Source of the DNA: Rickettsia typhi
GTDB taxonomy: Bacteria > Pseudomonadota > Alphaproteobacteria > Rickettsiales > Deianiraeaceae
Assembly: GCA_945889175.1 (NCBI GenBank)
Contig: CAMDBF010000003.1
Location: 223 to 64,222, forward strand
DNA length: 64,000 bases
Reading direction: 5' to 3'
The notes beneath the pieces were generated by a model, which did no database searches, was not told where the DNA came from, and saw only the letters and a list, made by a program, of their open reading frames with translations. Positions 45,515-55,677 of this stretch are shown piece after piece; position 1 is the first letter of the stretch, and each line of letters starts with the position of its first letter. A program made the position numbers and the translations under genes.

Positions 45515-47809
45515 ATGGAACTCGAACTTGAAGTAAAAGATTTAGACTTAACAGAGAATATAATATCATCTCTTAATAAAAGACAAAGGGAAGCTGTACT
45601 AACAAACAATAGCCCATTGTTAATTCTTGCAGGAGCGGGAACTGGAAAAACAAACACAATAACAAAAAAAATAGCCTACATTATAGCTTCAGGCTTTGCA
45701 AGCCCATCTCAAGTGCTTGCCGTAACCTTTACAAACAAGGCCGCAAACGAAATGCGCGAAAGAATCATAAAGGTTGTCAAAAATGGTCAGGATGTCAACA
45801 TAGGCACTTTTCACTCCATCTGTTTAAAAATGCTCAGATTTAATCACTCTGCGATAGGGGTTGAGAAAAATTTTGTTGTAATAGACGCTCAAGATCAAAA
45901 AGATATTCTAAAGGCAATAGCAAAAGAGATTGGGATTTGCACAAAGACATACTCGGTAAAAAACTTATCATCCATTATATCAAAGGCAAAGGATGCTGAT
46001 TTAGACGATTTTGAAAAAGCAAAATTCGTTCCAGAAGCCATGCGTGGCATATCTTTAAATATATTATTAAGCGAGTATAACAAAAAGTTAAAAGCCCTTA
46101 ATGCCTTTGACTTCGACGATCTTTTACTCAGAACAGTAAGAATGCTTCAAGACAATAAAAATATCCTTGAATATTACCAAAGTAAATACAAGTACATAAT
46201 GGTTGATGAATATCAAGATACCAACACAATACAGTATAAATTAATCAAACTTTTAACTGGCTCAAACTCAAATATTTGCGTTGTTGGTGACGACGATCAA
46301 TCTATATACGGATGGCGTGGTGCGGACATTGAAAACATTTTAAGGTTTTCAAAAGAATTTAAGGGTGCGAAAACTATTAGACTTGAGGACAATTATCGTT
46401 CAACACCAAGCATATTAAATGTTGCAAACTCTCTTATTAACAACAATTCTAACAGGCTTGGTAAAAATTTAGTTTCAACTAAAAAACATGACAAGCCGGT
46501 TGTAATCCGTCAACACATTGACGAAAGAAATGAAGTTACCTTCATAATCAATCAAATAATGCACATCAACCAAATCAATGGAGTACCGCTATCGCAAATT
46601 GCTATATTATTAAGATCCTCTGCTCTTTCAAGGTATCTTGAGGAAAGTTTAATTAAGTCTAATATAGCTTATAAAATTATTGGTGGACTGAGGTTCTATG
46701 AAAGAAAAGAGGTGAAGGATGTCATATCCTATCTTAGAATACTAGGTAATGACATGGACTTTATATCATTTAAAAGAGCAATGTCAAACCCTAAAAGAGG
46801 CATAGGCGATGCAAGTTTAGATAAAATAGAATCCTTTGCAACCCAAAACAACTTAGGCATTACCGAAACTTTAAAAATCATTTCTGAAGATGGATTTTTC
46901 TCTGGAACCAATCTTAACTTAAGGCTAGTGTCAAAGGCGAGGGAGGCAATAAATGATTTTTATATAAAGCTTCAAAGATGGCAAAGTATCATTAATACCG
47001 AAAATTTAAGACTTGATTTTGTCGCCGAAGAGATAATGAGTGACATATCTTACGAGGAATTTTTACGCTCTGAAAGTGAAGACACAAGAGAGTTTGAAGC
47101 GAAAAGCGAAAACCTAAGAGAGCTTTCAAGATTGCTATCTGACTTTAGATCTATAGGTGACTTCCTAGAGTACTCAAGTCTTTCGAGCGACGAAACAGGT
47201 CTGTCAAAAAACGGGCAGGAGACAAAAGAATCTCTCTCTATAATGACAATCCATGCCTCAAAGGGTCTAGAATTTGAAGCAGTTTTTGTACCATTTTTGG
47301 AAGATGGAATTTTTCCAAATCAAAGAGCAATAGATGAATCAAAAACAGGTGATGTAGAAGAGGAAAGAAGACTTGGTTATGTTGCTGTTACTAGGGCAAT
47401 GAGGTATTTGTATTTAACTTTTTCAAAACACAGGTTTTTTGCAGGCTCCCTTGTACCAACAACAAGATCTAGGTTTATAGATGAAATTACCGCCGTTCAA
47501 ACTGATTCTTTTGAATTTTTAAAACAAGAGTTCTCACCTCTTTTTAATCAAAAAAAATCCAAATCAAGCTACGAAGAAGACGATACTACTAAGCCAAAAT
47601 CTAAAAATTCTGGCTACAGTCCAAATCCAAAAAGAGCCGTTAGACTTAACCAAGGTTTTGCAAAAAATCTCAGTATAGGCACCCCAGTAAGTCATAAAAT
47701 ATTTGGAACCGGTAAGGTGCAAAAAATCGATGGACTGTTTTACGAAGTCATTTTTGATAACGACAGTCAAAAAAGAAGTATAAGAAAAGATTTTCTAGAA
47801 TCTATATAA
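45515..47809 (+). CDS. uvrD: UvrD/Rep/PcrA-family ATP-dependent DNA helicase
   Basis: 'AGAGTGKT', 'VTFTNKAA', 'IMVDEYQDTN', 'VGDDDQSIYGWRGA', 'TIHASKGLEF' and 'VAVTRA'. Confidence 0.9.
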   Translation: MELELEVKDLDLTENIISSLNKRQREAVLTNNSPLLILAGAGTGKTNTITKKIAYIIASGFASPSQVLAVTFTNKAANEMRERIIKVVKNGQDVNIGTFHSICLKMLRFNHSAIGVEKNFVVIDAQDQKDILKAIAKEIGICTKTYSVKNLSSIISKAKDADLDDFEKAKFVPEAMRGISLNILLSEYNKKLKALNAFDFDDLLLRTVRMLQDNKNILEYYQSKYKYIMVDEYQDTNTIQYKLIKLLTGSNSNICVVGDDDQSIYGWRGADIENILRFSKEFKGAKTIRLEDNYRSTPSILNVANSLINNNSNRLGKNLVSTKKHDKPVVIRQHIDERNEVTFIINQIMHINQINGVPLSQIAILLRSSALSRYLEESLIKSNIAYKIIGGLRFYERKEVKDVISYLRILGNDMDFISFKRAMSNPKRGIGDASLDKIESFATQNNLGITETLKIISEDGFFSGTNLNLRLVSKAREAINDFYIKLQRWQSIINTENLRLDFVAEEIMSDISYEEFLRSESEDTREFEAKSENLRELSRLLSDFRSIGDFLEYSSLSSDETGLSKNGQETKESLSIMTIHASKGLEFEAVFVPFLEDGIFPNQRAIDESKTGDVEEERRLGYVAVTRAMRYLYLTFSKHRFFAGSLVPTTRSRFIDEITAVQTDSFEFLKQEFSPLFNQKKSKSSYEEDDTTKPKSKNSGYSPNPKRAVRLNQGFAKNLSIGTPVSHKIFGTGKVQKIDGLFYEVIFDNDSQKRSIRKDFLESI

Positions 47810-47818
47810 ATTAATAAA

Positions 47819-49150
47819 ATGTTTACAAAAGGAATTGTATTTTTTTTAACGACATTAAGTACTCTAATCTTTTTTTTAGAGAGCTTTGCGTCTTGTAAAA
47901 ATGCAGCTCTTATAATTCCAAATGCAAGCCACATAACAATAGGTGCAACACTTGATAATTATGATATTCAAGTTGCCTGTAGCATAGTAAATGGTACCGA
48001 ATATATTAACCCAGAAGGAAATAAGATTTTTAAAGTACTTTGCATAAATGGAACATGGAACAAAAAAACACTGCACTCATGCAACATCCCTCCAGCTAAG
48101 CCAATATACGGTGGGCGTAAAAACTTTAATTGCAATACTGACTACCTAAATATTGCAAATGCAACTTTAAAATTCAACAACACTACAATTACAAATCCAA
48201 TCACCGTAGCAAATGGAGCACAAATTGCTGTAACATGCAATGTTGGATATTTTGCCTCAATGCTTGCAAAAAACCCAGATCCCACAGAAGATGCGGACCC
48301 CAAAGCAGTTGTACCAATTGGATCTTACGCCGTTACCTGCGATAACGGAGTTTTTACCAATGTTAAAAACTGCACGCCAATTTGCAGCATCGACAGTTTA
48401 CAAACTTTTATGAGCAACCTAGGTGAAAGTATTACTATTTTAAACGACAATGTTGTTACTCTTGCCAGTGGTTCAAAAGTTGCCACGGTTGACTCTTCCG
48501 TAAAAGTAAAGTGTAACCAAGGCGGAATTAAAGAGATAGGATCTGACACTTACAACCTTAAATGTGTATATGCTACAGTATGCTACGACGACTCAAAAAC
48601 AACTTGTGAATTACTTTCTTATTTTAAAATTAATGACCCCAATTTACCAGAGGCAAACATTATTAATGCCGACATGAATAATGCAGAATCAGAGGTTTAT
48701 TTTAAAAGTTTTCCCAGATGCAGTGCTGAATATAAATCTTGCAAAAAAAGTGATATAGATTCAGCTATAACAACAGGACTACTTGACTCTTACGATATAA
48801 CTGACAAATATATCAAAACAGGAACAACAATAAGACTGACATGTGACGATAGTATTTTACGGTCTCAAGCTTCCAGTACTGCAAATGTCGACGGTCAAAA
48901 TGTTGGACTTTATAGCGACTCTACATCAGTTACATCAAATGCAACCCCAACAAGGATAGTTACCGACACAACGAGTGTTGACACAAGTCAATATAATGTT
49001 TTCAATACAAATGGAACCAATATAGTAACAGCAATTAAACTTGATTCCGATGGTAGACAATACTCTGATATTACCTGCAGAGACGGCAGCTGGGAGCCAA
49101 GTGTTGCAGTATTGCAATGCCCTGGGGAAACCAAATCGCCAGCGGTATAA
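47819..49150 (+). CDS. secreted Cys-rich protein built of Sushi/CCP-like modules
   Basis: Signal peptide, then four 4-Cys modules. Three end in a CCP-like motif: 'CINGTWNKKTLHSC', 'CDNGVFTNVKNC' and 'CRDGSWEPSVAVLQC'. Earlier 'C..G(Y/G)' strands are also present. Confidence 0.5.
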   Translation: MFTKGIVFFLTTLSTLIFFLESFASCKNAALIIPNASHITIGATLDNYDIQVACSIVNGTEYINPEGNKIFKVLCINGTWNKKTLHSCNIPPAKPIYGGRKNFNCNTDYLNIANATLKFNNTTITNPITVANGAQIAVTCNVGYFASMLAKNPDPTEDADPKAVVPIGSYAVTCDNGVFTNVKNCTPICSIDSLQTFMSNLGESITILNDNVVTLASGSKVATVDSSVKVKCNQGGIKEIGSDTYNLKCVYATVCYDDSKTTCELLSYFKINDPNLPEANIINADMNNAESEVYFKSFPRCSAEYKSCKKSDIDSAITTGLLDSYDITDKYIKTGTTIRLTCDDSILRSQASSTANVDGQNVGLYSDSTSVTSNATPTRIVTDTTSVDTSQYNVFNTNGTNIVTAIKLDSDGRQYSDITCRDGSWEPSVAVLQCPGETKSPAV

Positions 49151-49262
49151 AATTTAACTATTTTAAAAAAATGATTGATAAAAAAAATGATTGATTTAAC
49201 CTAGTATAAAGTTAAAGTTTTTTTTAAAAAACAAATCAAAGTTTTATAAGGCTGAAGCATTT

Positions 49263-51116
49263 TTGATCTACCAGATCTTATCTATTTTTATTATGGCAGG
49301 AGGAGCACCAGAGCAAGACAAGGTTTTAAGATACTTTAAAAACTTGGTTGTATTAAGTATTTTTTATGGAATAATCCTAGGATTTTTCTATTTTGCAAAC
49401 CTTCTATCAATTATTGCAGTTGTCGAATCCGTCGATAGAGTTATCAGCATCCTGCATTACGACCCTAAATTATATGCTAAACTAGCTATCGAAAGAACTC
49501 TTTACTACTGGTCTTTTTGGTTAAAATACAAAAGTACAATAAATTACTCTTATCATCACTTTTTTGTTATAAAGCTTTTTGCATTAACAATATCGCCTAC
49601 AATTTTATTAATGCTGTACATAAAAACTAAATGGCAAAGCATTAAAGAGTTTGTACCTTATAAGCCAGGGGAGGCTTTACACGGGGATGCCCATTGGGCA
49701 AGTTATTCTGAGATTAAAAAAATCGGTCTCTTTGCTAAGGATGGAATGCTTCTTGGCGAATACAAGCCTTCTAAATATTTTATTATAAAAGACTACCAGC
49801 ATGTACTACTCTTTGCTCCAACTGGATCTGGTAAGGGTGTTGGCTTTGTAATACCAAATCTATTATTTTGGAAAGAGAGCGTACTTGTTCATGATATTAA
49901 ACTTGAAAACTACGAACTTACAAGCGGATATAGATTTAATGTTTTAAAGCAAAAGTGTTACACTTGGGCTCCTGCTGATCCAGAAGGATACTCCCATTGT
50001 TACAATCCACTTGACTGGATAGCAACTCAATCTGGTAAAATGGTAGATGATGTTCAAAAAATTGTAAAAATTGTTATGCCAAAGCAAGAATTTTGGGAAA
50101 ACGAAGCTCGAAGCATGACAGTTGGGGTTATTTTGTTTTTAATAGCCGACGAAACAAAGCCCACAACCTTTGGAGAGGTTGTTAGAACACTAAGAAGTGA
50201 CGATGTAACTCAAACCCTAGCCGTTGCACTTGATACTCTTGGTGACAAGATTCACCCAGTTGGATATATGAATCTTTCTGCTTTTTTACAAAAAGCTGAA
50301 AAGGAAAGATCTGGTGTAATATCTACTGCAAACTCTGGACTTGAGCTTTGGTCAAACCCACTTATCGATAAAACAACATCACGAAGCGACTTTGACATAA
50401 GGCAGTTTAAAAAAGATTTGACAACCGTTTATGTAGGACTAACTCCCGATAACATTGAAAGACTAAGACCTCTAATGTCAATGTTTTACCAGCAGGCGAC
50501 AGCTTTTTTAGCATCTAAAATTCCACAAAAAGATGAACCATATGGCGTTATGTTTATGATGGATGAGTTTCCTACCGTTGGAAAGCTTGAACAATTTTTA
50601 TCTGGTATCGCTTATTTTCGTGGTTACCATGTTAAACTTTTTTTAATCGTACAAGATACTCAGCAATTAAAGGGTACATACGAAGACTCTGGTATGAACT
50701 CATTTTTATCAAACTCTACCTACCGTATAACATTTGCAGCCAATAACATTGAGACGGCAAAGTTAATATCCGAGCTTGTTGGTAACAAAACAGCCGTCTC
50801 AGAATCAATGAACAAGCCAAAGTTTTTAGATCTGAACCCTGGTAGTAGATCAGTCCACATGTCTCATACCCAAAGAGCTCTGCTTTTACCGCAGGAGGTT
50901 ATAGGATTGCCAAAAACAGATCAAATTATTCTTATCGAGGCATCACCACCAATAAGATGTAAAAAAATTAGATACTTTAAAGATAAATTTTTTACAAGGA
51001 AACTTCAAAAACCAATACCAATTCCAAAACAAAAACCTTATACTCCAAAAAGACAGACTCCAAAGCCACAAAATTCAGAATCAAATGCAACATCTTCCAA
51101 TGCGGCTAACAATTAA
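49263..51116 (+). CDS. virD4: type IV secretion coupling protein VirD4/TraG
   Basis: N-terminal TMs, Walker A 'FAPTGSGKGVGFVIPN', 'MFMMDEFPTVG' (Walker B) and 'FLIVQD'. The start is TTG 49263 or ATG 49293. Confidence 0.85.
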   Translation: MIYQILSIFIMAGGAPEQDKVLRYFKNLVVLSIFYGIILGFFYFANLLSIIAVVESVDRVISILHYDPKLYAKLAIERTLYYWSFWLKYKSTINYSYHHFFVIKLFALTISPTILLMLYIKTKWQSIKEFVPYKPGEALHGDAHWASYSEIKKIGLFAKDGMLLGEYKPSKYFIIKDYQHVLLFAPTGSGKGVGFVIPNLLFWKESVLVHDIKLENYELTSGYRFNVLKQKCYTWAPADPEGYSHCYNPLDWIATQSGKMVDDVQKIVKIVMPKQEFWENEARSMTVGVILFLIADETKPTTFGEVVRTLRSDDVTQTLAVALDTLGDKIHPVGYMNLSAFLQKAEKERSGVISTANSGLELWSNPLIDKTTSRSDFDIRQFKKDLTTVYVGLTPDNIERLRPLMSMFYQQATAFLASKIPQKDEPYGVMFMMDEFPTVGKLEQFLSGIAYFRGYHVKLFLIVQDTQQLKGTYEDSGMNSFLSNSTYRITFAANNIETAKLISELVGNKTAVSESMNKPKFLDLNPGSRSVHMSHTQRALLLPQEVIGLPKTDQIILIEASPPIRCKKIRYFKDKFFTRKLQKPIPIPKQKPYTPKRQTPKPQNSESNATSSNAANN

Positions 51117-52000: not shown

Positions 52001-54082
52001 ATGCTTGTAAAACATATATCGCTGAGCAAGTTGATTAAAAATATCACAAAGAAAACATATTATTACACATCAGTAAAATTAAAAGCCTTTTCGTTAATTG
52101 AAGTTGCAATTGCAATTGTACTTGTTGGCATAGTAACATTCCCTCTTATATCTATTACAACTGGCTTTTTAGAGAGGGCAAAGATAGAAAAGACAAACAA
52201 ATCGATAGCCGTCATTAAGGAGTCTTTGGTTTCATATTTTTTAATGAATAAAGCTCTACCCTGCCCAGCCGATCCAACTCTCAATCCAAATAACCCAAAC
52301 TATGGCAGCTCGCAATCTTCTTGTTCTTCAATTAAAGGAACCGTTATAGGTTCGCTACCAGTTGACGCTCTTGGACTTAGTAGAGATTTTATACTTGATG
52401 GTTACGGTCGTAAATTTGCTTATGCCGTTCCAAGCTTTTTAACAACATCAGGAAATGTGCGTTTTTATAAAGATAGAGCAGAAAAAACAATCATTGCATA
52501 TGATGGAAAGGAGCAACTATCTGCTGACAAACAAATTACACTAAATTCATCGGGCGGTACATTAATTGCAAGCGATGTATTTTTTATCATTAATAGTTAT
52601 GGCAAGGATGGGGTTGGTGCCTATCTTGAAAACGGCTCCAGACTTAAAACAACCAACATAAATGCCTCTGTTACCGCCGGAATGGCGTCTTACACAAGCT
52701 CCTTTACCTTGTTTTCAAAAAACGATATCACTGGAGATGATGTTCTGCAATATGGATCGTTTAAATCTATATTAAGCCTATTGCAAGACTACGGGTATGT
52801 AGAATGTCAAGATATAAAAGGTAACAACTCAAGCTTTACGGATATAAACTCTTTTACCTTTCCAAAAACTTCGGCAAATACAACAATAACTGCTAGTGCA
52901 TTAAGTTGTCCAAACGGTACAGCTTTACTTCAAACACCCACTGCAACTTGCTCGTCAAGCGGAGACTGGATAAACTTCAAACCTCAAGAATGTGGGTATT
53001 ATAATAAAGATGTTATTTACGGAACTATTACCTTTGGCGATGTTGGTACCGCAAGTGGTGCAGTTACTTCAACTGGACCAATACTCGCTGCTATCAAAAC
53101 ATTAGATGTCACAGGAGCAACAGCTATAGAAGTTTTAGTCGATAACCTAGGCGGAACCGACTACAGGGTTCAGGCTACATTAAAATCGAACGATGCTAAG
53201 GATGTAAACACTGTAAGCACGCCAGTTATCAAAATTATCGATAGCAGTAAGTTTCATATCCTATTAAAGGACATAGGAATTGCAACTCAAGATCCAAGCT
53301 TTGGAGTATCACTTGTTATAACAAGTCCTTTAAAAGCATCTAACCAACTAGATGCAACATTATATCCTGGCATGCCTCTTTGTACAATAGTAGCTCTGTA
53401 TTCAGAAACGATACCAGATGGATGGAAGCTTTGCGACGGAAAAAACTTGACGACAACTGATACGTGTGATAAGAATTTACAAACATACTGCGGACTTACA
53501 TCTACCGCACCAGACTTGAGAGGTCTTTTTTTAAGAGGTCTTGACAAAGGAAGAGGCATGGATCCAGAGTATTCAACCTCAAGATACAATCCACTAGATT
53601 CAGTCGCCAAAACAAGTGTTACAAAAACAACCACATCAAATGCAATAGGCAGTATACAAGATGAAGCTATTATAGCCCACGCCCACTCCCTTGCAGCAGT
53701 AAAAGCAACCCTAAAAGGAACTGCAACAACAACCATAACTCCACCTGCAACTGGAAATGTTTTACTCTCTGGGACGAGTACAAATGCAATCCTTATCTCT
53801 ACAACTACAACTGCACCTACTGGAACTAGCAGGCTCTTCCAGTTGCCAGGTAACACGCCAGCCTTAGCTGTTGCAGGTCTTAGTGCCTTAAGCTGGCCAG
53901 CCGTTACAAATATTACTGGCATCACTGTTAGTGTTACAGCACCTTCCGTAGTGGGATCAATAGACACTTCATCCGAACAAGACGCAACTACCAGCGGAGA
54001 TATCACAACCGAGACAGCGATGGCAACCAACGAGGTAAGACCTAAAAATATTGCGGTAAATTACATTATAAGATGCAAGTAA
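52001..54082 (+). CDS. chimeric surface protein: prepilin-type N-terminus and pilin-like domain fused to a phage tail-collar/tail-fibre-tip-like C-terminal domain
   Basis: 'KAFSLIEVAIAIVLVGIV' is near-consensus for the N-methylation site (Ala at -1, Glu at +5) and is followed by the pseudopilin-like 'LPCPAD...GSLPVDALGL...DGYGRKFAY'. The C-terminus has 'IPDGWKLCDG...APDLRGLFLRGLD.GRG.D...QDEAIIAHAH...NEVRPKNIAVNYIIR'. Confidence 0.6.
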   Translation: MLVKHISLSKLIKNITKKTYYYTSVKLKAFSLIEVAIAIVLVGIVTFPLISITTGFLERAKIEKTNKSIAVIKESLVSYFLMNKALPCPADPTLNPNNPNYGSSQSSCSSIKGTVIGSLPVDALGLSRDFILDGYGRKFAYAVPSFLTTSGNVRFYKDRAEKTIIAYDGKEQLSADKQITLNSSGGTLIASDVFFIINSYGKDGVGAYLENGSRLKTTNINASVTAGMASYTSSFTLFSKNDITGDDVLQYGSFKSILSLLQDYGYVECQDIKGNNSSFTDINSFTFPKTSANTTITASALSCPNGTALLQTPTATCSSSGDWINFKPQECGYYNKDVIYGTITFGDVGTASGAVTSTGPILAAIKTLDVTGATAIEVLVDNLGGTDYRVQATLKSNDAKDVNTVSTPVIKIIDSSKFHILLKDIGIATQDPSFGVSLVITSPLKASNQLDATLYPGMPLCTIVALYSETIPDGWKLCDGKNLTTTDTCDKNLQTYCGLTSTAPDLRGLFLRGLDKGRGMDPEYSTSRYNPLDSVAKTSVTKTTTSNAIGSIQDEAIIAHAHSLAAVKATLKGTATTTITPPATGNVLLSGTSTNAILISTTTTAPTGTSRLFQLPGNTPALAVAGLSALSWPAVTNITGITVSVTAPSVVGSIDTSSEQDATTSGDITTETAMATNEVRPKNIAVNYIIRCK

Positions 54083-55677
54083 TTAAAAACTTTTTAAAAA
54101 AATTAAGCTCAGTATCATTAAGTCTAAGCTTAACGCAAATTAACCTTGCGATAGCTTTTGCTGCAATCAGTCTCACTTTACACTCTTCGCCTTTAGTAAG
54201 TTTTGTAGTAAAAAATACATCTACAGCCAAGATTGTAATTTTATCGCAAGTTTTGGTTTTACAATTTTTAGTTATAGCTTTTTTTTCAAATTTACTTTGC
54301 ATAATTTTTTATAAGCATACAAAAATTTTAAAATCAATACTAATCTTTATTTGCCTTGCAAACTCTATTGCAATTTATTTTGTCAACACATTTGCAACAA
54401 TTCTTGACAAGGCAATGTTTAGCAATGTTTTTAACACAAAATACAGCGAGGCATCGCAGCTTGTAGGCTTTAGCTTAATATATTACATATTGCTTTACGG
54501 CATTGTTCCAAGTTACTTACTTGCAAAAATAAAAATTACCAAAAGTAGCTTTGCAAAAAAAATCCTTAGCTTAGTAATATACTTAATACTTACAATTGTC
54601 ACAGGCTTTGCAAATTCCAAAAATTGGCTCTGGTTTGACAAACATGCAAAACATCTAGGCGGACTCGAAATGCCTTTTAGCTACATAATAAACTCAGTAA
54701 GAGGCTACAAGATGCTTCACCAAAAGCCAAAGATTTACAAGGAGCTTGAACTTGCAACATTTACTGGTGGTAAAAATAAAACCTTGGTGGTATTAGTTAT
54801 TGGCGAATCGGCAAGAATGCAAAACTTTTCACTCTATGGTTACAGTCAAAATACAAACCCCCTGCTCTCAAAGGATGGGGTTGTTGCCCTTCAAAATCCA
54901 AGCTCCTGCACAACTTACACAACTGGCTCCATAGAATGTATGCTTAGCAATCTAAGTTCCCGATCTTCACATCGTACAGATTTTGAACCTTTGCCAAACT
55001 ACCTATTAAAACATGGTGTAAGCGTAATTTGGCGAAGCAACAACTGGGGACACCCAAGTATACAAACAAGCCTATACAAAGAGATAAAGGATATACAAAA
55101 AGAATATACCGTAAGGCAAAATATTAATTACGACGAAGTGTTGCTTGAGGGGCTCGAATTAGATATCGCAAAATACCAAAGCTCGCAAAATATTTTTGTT
55201 GTTTTGCATCAAGCTGGTAGCCACGGGCCATCTTACAACCTTAAATACCCAAAAGAGTTTGAAAAATTTACCCCAGTTTGCAATAGTGTTGAAATACAAA
55301 AGTGCTCAAAACAAGATTTAATTAATGGATATGACAACACAATTTTATACACAGATTTTATTTTGCACTCTTTAATTGCAAAATTAAAACAAATTAAAAA
55401 TAGAGATGTTTTAATGATATACACATCAGACCATGGAGAATCACTAGGTGAAGATGGATTTTATTTACACGGCACGCCTTATAGCCTTGCCCCAGATTAC
55501 CAAAAAAAAGTGCCTATGATACTTTGGTTTTCAGCAGGATTTGCAAACAAGCATAAAATAGATATTGCAAAACTTAAGGCAAGACAAAATAACTCACATG
55601 ATTTAATCTTTCACACTATAACATCTTCATTTTGGCTTAAAGATGGAGCGGTAGAACAAAAATACTCTTGCATTTAA
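54073..55677 (+). CDS. eptA: lipid A phosphoethanolamine transferase (EptA/MCR family)
   Basis: Five N-terminal TMs and a sulfatase-fold domain with 'VLVIGESARMQNFSLYGY', 'HQAGSHGPSY' and 'TSDHGESLGEDG'. It overlaps the previous gene by 10 nt. Confidence 0.85.
   Translation: MQVIKNFLKKLSSVSLSLSLTQINLAIAFAAISLTLHSSPLVSFVVKNTSTAKIVILSQVLVLQFLVIAFFSNLLCIIFYKHTKILKSILIFICLANSIAIYFVNTFATILDKAMFSNVFNTKYSEASQLVGFSLIYYILLYGIVPSYLLAKIKITKSSFAKKILSLVIYLILTIVTGFANSKNWLWFDKHAKHLGGLEMPFSYIINSVRGYKMLHQKPKIYKELELATFTGGKNKTLVVLVIGESARMQNFSLYGYSQNTNPLLSKDGVVALQNPSSCTTYTTGSIECMLSNLSSRSSHRTDFEPLPNYLLKHGVSVIWRSNNWGHPSIQTSLYKEIKDIQKEYTVRQNINYDEVLLEGLELDIAKYQSSQNIFVVLHQAGSHGPSYNLKYPKEFEKFTPVCNSVEIQKCSKQDLINGYDNTILYTDFILHSLIAKLKQIKNRDVLMIYTSDHGESLGEDGFYLHGTPYSLAPDYQKKVPMILWFSAGFANKHKIDIAKLKARQNNSHDLIFHTITSSFWLKDGAVEQKYSCI

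Follow-up and report, generated by a model that had tools for sequence, protein, structure and literature searches.

A forward-strand gene in a 64,000-nucleotide stretch of Rickettsiales DNA (contig CAMDBF010000003.1, positions 223 to 64,222, assembly GCA_945889175.1; hereafter the window) encodes, from an ATG start, a 443-amino-acid (aa) protein in which a signal peptide precedes four modules resembling complement control protein (CCP, or Sushi) domains (47819..49150). On the strength of profile searches and structure predictions, we regard it as highly probable that this protein has a divergent CCP/Sushi fold. The explanation that we favor for the protein as a whole, and consider probable, is that of an exported, four-module, CCP-like binding scaffold facing a host or another external partner; a role at the host interface, which is suggested by analogy, is put forward more tentatively, as plausible but short of probable. 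A prior reading of the DNA, made from its letters and translations (the sequence-only reading), had proposed a secreted protein made of CCP/Sushi modules. Both the profiles and the predicted fold support this interpretation, and the protein appears to be a real, divergent and unannotated bacterial member of the group.

Conserved framework and module map

Relatives of the 443-aa protein were few. Word-indexed and exhaustive searches of protein collections yielded two sequences at 93% and 88% identity, one at approximately 43%, and two at approximately 28-32%. The alignment used throughout comprised seven sequences, and the DNA of the relatives was represented by loci L004 to L007. Within a sample of 201 genomes of the order, the family was present in two and was found only in the genus of the window assembly, plus one broken, marginal match (E 5e-4). 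Locus L004 (CAMCVL010000007.1) is titled "MAG: Rickettsia typhi isolate ME-21oct19-56", a species label that looks wrong; it appears to correspond to genome G117, which is placed in the genus of the window assembly, and carries a near-full-length homologue as well as a UvrD protein 84% identical to that of the window.

The 443-aa protein contains 18 Cys residues (positions 26, 54, 75, 88, 105, 140, 174, 185, 189, 232, 249, 255, 263, 301, 308, 342, 420 and 434). All of these, together with W80, W425, N35 and N114, are invariant in the seven-member alignment, in which identity falls to 27%; the "CN-G-Y" motif of module 2 and the C-terminal "C-P" are also invariant across the homologues. The persistence of this Cys/Trp/Asn framework down to 27% identity argues that the pattern is selected and not a product of chance. 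The motifs quoted in the sequence-only reading, i.e., VACSIVNG, VTCNVGYF, LTCDDS, CINGTWNKKTLHSC, CDNGVFTNVKNC and CRDGSWEPSVAVLQC, were each found in the open reading frame (ORF) at 47819-49150. In a six-frame scan of the whole 1.155-Mb assembly, three or more matches to the pattern C-x(1-3)-G-x-[WFY]-x(4-12)-C were present in 3 of 3415 ORFs of at least 60 aa, one being the ORF under study and the other two being giant, Cys-rich ORFs. Hidden Markov models (HMMs) of the modules, run against all six-frame ORFs, detected neither a paralogue in the same genome nor a link to the giant Cys-rich ORFs.

A signal peptide had been claimed for the protein, and its N-terminus indeed shows a basic residue (K4), a hydrophobic core and the sequence "SFA/SC", an organization common to all seven family members. 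The segment (aa 1-24; 47819..47890, forward strand) has a Kyte-Doolittle 15-residue maximum of 2.45 at residue 6, its core and A24 are invariant in 7/7 sequences, and AlphaFold2 (AF2) models residues 2-21 as a helix. Signal peptidase I would probably cut after A24, at a site recognized by eye. Lipidation of Cys26 was considered as well. The residues up to and including this Cys read FASC here and in P0005, LASC in P0009, which is a canonical lipobox, and FAFC in P0007 and P0008, which does not fit the pattern used ([LVI][ASTVI][GAS]C where the signal peptide ends). Given that Cys26 aligns with the first Cys (C1) of CCP domains, and that the total of 18 Cys is even, a lipoprotein Cys was judged less likely and cleavage by signal peptidase I is favored. 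N-glycosylation sequons were not enriched in the protein (9 observed vs 7.9 expected), and a scan for promoters and terminators gave nothing informative.

Module 1 (aa 25-89; 47891..48085, on the forward strand as are all features of this map) contains C26, C54, C75 and C88 with the spacing C-x27-C-x20-C-x12-C and the invariant residues N35 and W80. It is joined to module 2 by a Pro-rich linker of 16 residues between C88 and C105 (aa 90-104 of which correspond to 48086..48130); this linker is invariant in close strains, and its residues 92-101 have a predicted local distance difference test score (pLDDT) of <50. Module 2 (aa 105-185; 48131..48373) contains C105, C140, C174 and C185 with the spacing C-x34-C-x33-C-x10-C, of which the 33-residue C2-C3 loop is variable, together with an invariant "TCNxGY" motif; Phe179 stands in the place of the Trp, and is replaced by Leu in P0007. 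Module 3 (aa 189-301; 48383..48721) is atypical, with C189, C232 and C249 aligning with C1-C3 of CCP domains and an extra Cys pair beyond them. Its C4 is probably C301 ("FPRC"), in which case an inserted beta-hairpin would be closed by C255-C263; the AF2 model places strands at 244-255 and 263-271. After C185 and C301, the linkers are short (3 and 6 aa, respectively), as is typical of CCP arrays.

Module 4 (aa 308-434; 48740..49120) contains C308, C342, C420 and C434, with W425 and "CPGE" invariant. Its spacing here is C-x33-C-x77-C-x13-C, and its C2-C3 interval accommodates a Ser/Thr/Asn-rich insert (aa 346-405; 48854..49033) with a pLDDT of 30-40. P0005 and P0009, which are the most distant members, have no such insert; they lack the 77-residue stretch C342-C420, and their module 4 is compact (C-x33-C-x26-C-x13-C, i.e., a C2-C3 gap of about 26). 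When all 18 Cys are paired on this map, we infer nine disulfides, with every pairing and the C-terminal half of module 3 being putative assignments. The sequence-only reading had described four Cys-bounded modules, the third of them less clear. Four modules could be mapped, with four invariant Cys at CCP-like spacing in modules 1, 2 and 4, and with the Trp of the C3-x-x-G-x-W motif invariant in modules 1 and 4; module 3 proved to be aberrant, as it aligns with CCP domains only from C1 to C3 and has no Trp.

Similarity to CCP domains

Pfam and NCBIfam searches returned no family above threshold for the 443-aa protein, whether whole or as single modules. With the Sushi profile PF00084 (gathering threshold 20.7 bits), there was no match to the protein (P0001) at E<=10, whole or by module, and none to its ORF in a six-frame scan of its own genome. 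PF00084 was the sole recurrent Pfam family among the members, its best scores being 15.4 bits for module 2 of P0005 and 13.6 bits for module 2 of P0009. The Pfam Sushi check proposed in the sequence-only reading did not, therefore, reach the cut-off in any member of the family.

Profile searches against PDB sequences were more informative. The module 1 profile matched CCP6-8 of factor H (E 3.4e-4), with C1, C2, C3 and the Trp in register, and with the conserved post-C1 Asn placed on that of the "N-G" motif of CCP domains. All module 1 matches with E <1.5 were factor H chains, the sole non-CCP protein among the 12 matches listed being a haemagglutinin-esterase (E 1.9). The individual-domain E-values were weak, the best single domain reaching 0.61, and the significance of the match arose from summing three domains. 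The module 2 profile matched Crry (E 2.9e-3) and vaccinia VCP (E 0.05), then SPICE, the CCPs of PAPP-A, and CFHR2. The whole-family profile gave two matches only, both to CFHR2 (E 0.07), in an alignment spanning C3-C4 of module 2, the 3-residue linker and C1-C3 of module 3 (C189, C232 and C249). In single-sequence searches of the PDB, module 4 gave a weak match to C4BP-alpha at aa 326-360 (E 0.6); a match to VgrG (E 0.19) was dismissed as one of low-complexity Ser/Thr sequence. Modules 1 and 2 were related to each other by hhalign with a probability of 83% (E 8.5e-6), and a crude HMM derived from CCP modules found elsewhere in the Rickettsiales ranked the 443-aa protein second in its genome (E 0.03). 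Profile similarity to CCP domains, i.e., to factor H, Crry and CFHR2, was therefore present, and no known bacterial repeat family matched the protein in Pfam or NCBIfam.

Structure predictions pointed in the same direction. The AF2 models of the 443-aa protein and of the compact homologue P0009 had mean pLDDT values of 59.6 and 59.8, respectively; in the former, the modules scored 65-79 and the linkers and insert <50. In Foldseek searches of the PDB, the top 50 matches of both models were all CCP-containing proteins, with best E-values of 2e-6 for the 443-aa protein, which had 21 matches at E<=1e-3, and 7.8e-8 for P0009. The targets included factor XIII B, MASP-1/2/3, C1r/C1s, beta2-glycoprotein I, factor H, CFHRs and PAPP-A, as well as CD46, CD55, CR2, factor B, C2b, C6/C7 and C4BP. 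Two-module targets gave target-normalized TM scores of 0.4-0.5. A Foldseek search of a viral library likewise placed complement-control proteins, those of gammaherpesviruses, in the top five positions. Insofar as predictions can decide the matter, the folds are thus CCP-like in two models, as the sequence-only reading had anticipated.

Several observations weigh against a CCP assignment. In addition to the failure of any Pfam or NCBIfam family to reach threshold, the module 4 profile found no CCP domain in the PDB, module 3 lacks the Trp, and the modules, at 81-127 aa, exceed the canonical CCP length of about 60 aa. Whole-chain TM scores were 0.12-0.2, which is expected for flexible bead strings but leaves the fit of each module unquantified. 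Finally, with a modest pLDDT of about 60 on an alignment of seven sequences, AF2 may draw on the Cys pattern itself. An alternative explanation is that the protein consists of a lineage-specific Cys-rich repeat whose Cys/Trp spacing came to resemble that of CCP domains by convergence, without homology, and that the fold predictions only mirror this spacing. The missing library match, the dependence of the factor H match on summed domains, the modest pLDDT, the enlarged modules and the E-value of only 0.03 with the Rickettsiales CCP HMM would all be compatible with this. However, searches with separate parts of the protein were led by CCP domains and not by EGF, SRCR or comparable Cys-rich folds. 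Moreover, the C1, C2, C3, Trp and post-C1 Asn columns all match those of CCP domains, the compact homologues have near-canonical spacing, and the top-50 Foldseek lists of two models contained CCP proteins exclusively. We consider convergence unlikely, and retain a divergent CCP fold as the preferred assignment.

Gene neighborhood and the relationship to virD4

The gene lies 9 bp downstream of a uvrD/pcrA-type helicase gene with Pfam UvrD domains (45515..47809, forward strand), an order that is kept in L004, L005 and L007, and is followed by a virD4 coupling-protein gene (49263..51116, forward strand; PF02534, E 2.2e-138). The statement of the sequence-only reading that it stands immediately upstream of virD4 holds for the window, where the two genes share a strand and are separated by a 112-bp spacer, but the adjacency is not conserved beyond the close strain L007. 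Linkage to uvrD, in contrast, is kept both in this close strain and in the other species of the genus (L004 and L005). In L004, the homologue has no ORF of 100 aa or more behind it on its own strand, and the next ORFs, compared by position and strand, run in the opposite direction; in L006, the homologue is flanked by parA-like and hemN-like genes. As uvrD is conserved beside the gene, and virD4 is found there only here and in L007, the virD4 adjacency appears to be incidental. The spacer between the 443-aa protein gene and virD4 contains the 15-bp unit AAAAAAATGATTGAT twice in tandem (49166-49195).

This context bears on the possibility that, instead of facing a host, the protein works in the periplasm as an accessory to, or a structural partner of, a nearby type IV secretion system (T4SS; virD4 and possibly virB4). 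Such a role would fit with a gene that, here and in L007, precedes virD4 by 112 bp in the same orientation, and with a protein that has a Sec signal but no evident motif for outer-membrane export or anchoring. In L004 and L005, however, the homologue follows uvrD with nothing on the same strand behind it among the ORFs listed, and in L006 it is found between parA-like and hemN-like genes. T4SS genes are widespread in the Rickettsiales, whereas the family was present in only 2 of the 201 genomes of the order, and it diverges far faster than virD4. Furthermore, we know of no VirB or Rvh component with CCP modules. On balance, a T4SS partnership seems quite improbable. The protein as a T4SS component or VirD4 substrate was likewise rejected, there being no Pfam or NCBIfam match and no conserved linkage with virD4. 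A cytoplasmic substrate recruited by VirD4 is not expected to carry a Sec signal peptide, and it is because of this signal, and of uvrD being the conserved neighbor, that we conclude that the protein is neither a T4SS component nor a VirD4-dependent substrate. The exported CCP-like scaffold remains the reading that we prefer.

Divergence, origin and proposed role

The 443-aa protein has diverged rapidly. Between two species of the genus, its identity was 39%, as compared with 84% for the product of the adjacent uvrD gene. Relative to the close strain, dN was 0.064 for this gene vs 0.003-0.017 for secA, murF, uvrD and virD4, and dS was also raised (0.35 vs about 0.1 for its neighbors); the resulting dN/dS of 0.18 indicates purifying selection. 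Among the three closest sequences, changes amounted to 0.17-0.23 per site in module 2, module 3 and the module 4 insert, whereas module 1 and the end of module 4 were nearly fixed (0.03 per site); variable positions numbered 2/65 in module 1 and 14/60 in the insert. These sequence comparisons indicate a functional protein whose scaffold is under constraint and whose loops change quickly. An eptA-like gene at 54073-55677 has also diverged from the close strain much more than secA, murF, uvrD and virD4 (dN 0.080, dS 0.47), and this string of genes may thus contain another envelope-related locus that evolves rapidly or recombines.

Transfer of the gene from a host, with mimicry of host complement or adhesion modules, had been raised in the sequence-only reading. 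In such a scenario, the bacterium would have recently captured a eukaryotic CCP gene, whose product would imitate a regulator of complement or adhesion in the host. Eukaryotes are where the CCP fold is typically found, and the best viral structural analogs, the gammaherpesvirus proteins named above, are captured four-CCP complement-control proteins. Against this, a search of 1.84 billion representative proteins yielded four matches at E<=1e-3, all of them belonging to the bacterial family itself, and no eukaryotic sequence relative was found among these representatives. In addition, the GC (0.366) and GC3 (0.273) of the gene match those of its neighbors, and many families of the order possess CCP-like modules, often in pilin-like proteins, which points to an old bacterial pool. 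To our knowledge, protists have no complement system. The Rickettsiales lineages described as relatives of such bacteria live in water, in association with protists (ciliates) or Hydra (PMC9352585). The window genome is a candidate member of the family named there; no match to TLC (the ATP/ADP translocase) turned up, in a search whose control was uninformative. Recent horizontal transfer from a eukaryote was rejected on the basis of the library searches and composition, neither transfer nor complement mimicry found support, and we regard capture from a host as very improbable when compared with the exported bacterial CCP scaffold proposed here.

The view of CCP domains as overwhelmingly eukaryotic, on which that proposal drew, needs qualifying. 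PF00084 scored above its curated cut-off in 10/201 genomes of the order, and in 0/14 control genomes. The ORFs concerned, examined at loci L010-L015 (genomes G044, G061, G013, G050, G108 and G155), were Cys-rich and 650 to >960 aa in length, several having pseudopilin-like N-termini and many C-x-x-G-x-W...C modules. A literature search on Sushi domains in bacteria or Rickettsiales turned up nothing relevant.

Sushi-like sequences were also observed elsewhere in the genome of the window. Downstream of virD4, a 693-aa pilin-like protein (ORF 52001-54082) carries a Sushi-like stretch at 52901-52993, and a similar stretch is present in its 444-aa paralogue (contig C24, 4385-5716, reverse strand), an example of such a stretch being CPNGTALLQTPTATCSSSGDWINFKPQEC; the PF00084 scores of this pair were sub-threshold at 12.7 and 15.3 bits, respectively. 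Two giant ORFs, one of 1979 aa with 83 Cys (C10, 2898-8834) and the other of 1622 aa with 62 Cys (C27, 7838-12703), contain several C-x-N-G-x-W...C motifs and have no Pfam match. The crude Rickettsiales CCP HMM matched the latter at E 0.002, and a DsbA-like gene (C10, 9744-10214) lies directly downstream of the former. A further ORF of 1119 aa, cut by a contig end (C52, 996-4352), gave strong matches to Kelch repeats of eukaryotic type (PF24681, E 2.9e-36).

CCP/Sushi modules are the protein-binding units of animal complement regulators, selectins and cytokine receptors. Arrays of these modules (factor H, CFHR1/2, C4BP-alpha, Crry, CD46, CD55, beta2-glycoprotein I and factor XIII B) are the best and only consistent match of the 443-aa protein, by both profile and predicted fold. 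They resemble it in their four-Cys modules, short linkers and beads-on-a-string arrangement, as well as in the motifs C1-x(4-5)-[LI]-x-[IV]-x-N, [IV]-x-C2-x-x-G-[YF] and, with its Trp in modules 1 and 4, C3-x-[ND]-G-x-W...C4. Unlike these arrays, the protein is bacterial, falls below the Pfam cut-off, has modules enlarged by loops of 33-77 residues, substitutes Phe for Trp in module 2, and lacks the Trp of module 3, which has an extra Cys pair; there was also no evidence of a complement-related role. The viral four-CCP proteins (gammaherpesvirus ORF4/KCP-type, vaccinia VCP and variola SPICE) are similarly small, secreted and made almost entirely of about four CCPs, but these were clearly taken from vertebrate hosts in recent times and retain high sequence similarity, whereas the present family has no detectable eukaryotic donor. 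The large Sushi-like proteins of L010-L015 belong to the same order and share with the 443-aa protein export, abundant disulfides and C-x-x-G-x-W...C modules. They differ from it in being larger and often having pseudopilin-like N-termini or other domains, while the 443-aa protein is a stand-alone array with a plain signal peptide.

From these comparisons, the following mode of action can be proposed. The protein would be exported by the Sec pathway and lose its signal peptide, after which some 420 residues would fold in the oxidizing periplasm and acquire nine disulfides in a Dsb-dependent manner. With genes for DsbB and two DsbA-like proteins in the genome, periplasmic disulfide formation is plausible. 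Modules 1 and 2 would be recognizable CCPs; module 3 would keep the first three Cys positions and have a remodeled C-terminal half; and module 4 would be a CCP with a large disordered insert. By analogy with CCP arrays elsewhere, the product would most likely be an elongated, non-enzymatic scaffold that binds protein or glycan ligands. Its location would be extracytoplasmic, probably at the cell surface or farther out, and it would face a host, probably a protist, or another external partner. Such an outward placement would account for the contrast between rapidly diverging loops and inserts and a fixed framework of Cys, Trp and Asn residues. The variable loops of modules 2, 3 and 4 would then be likely contact or antigenic surfaces, and the conserved module 1 and end of module 4 possible anchoring or partner-binding sites. 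A consideration that counts against this placement is that the protein carries no signal for anchoring or for export across the outer membrane, so that it could just as well reside in the periplasm.

Taken together, the data add the 443-aa protein to a growing set of CCP/Sushi proteins in the Rickettsiales; it does not represent a novel type of system, and appears to have no functional tie to virD4. Current domain libraries miss this divergent bacterial CCP branch. As the organism is uncultured, the practical impact is moderate. A speculative possibility, and one that we hold loosely, is that the protein is the smallest member of an old bacterial CCP/Sushi radiation in host-associated Rickettsiales, together with the giant proteins and the pilin-borne modules; the fold would then not be a loan from eukaryotes, and this rapidly diversifying toolkit would be the main means by which these bacteria attach to, or recognize, the surfaces of protist or animal hosts. 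At approximately 420 aa, a compact, all-CCP bacterial protein would offer an entry point for asking whether the bacterial modules have the CCP topology, which ligand they bind, and whether the Sushi-like surface proteins of uncultured Rickettsiales are host-attachment factors.

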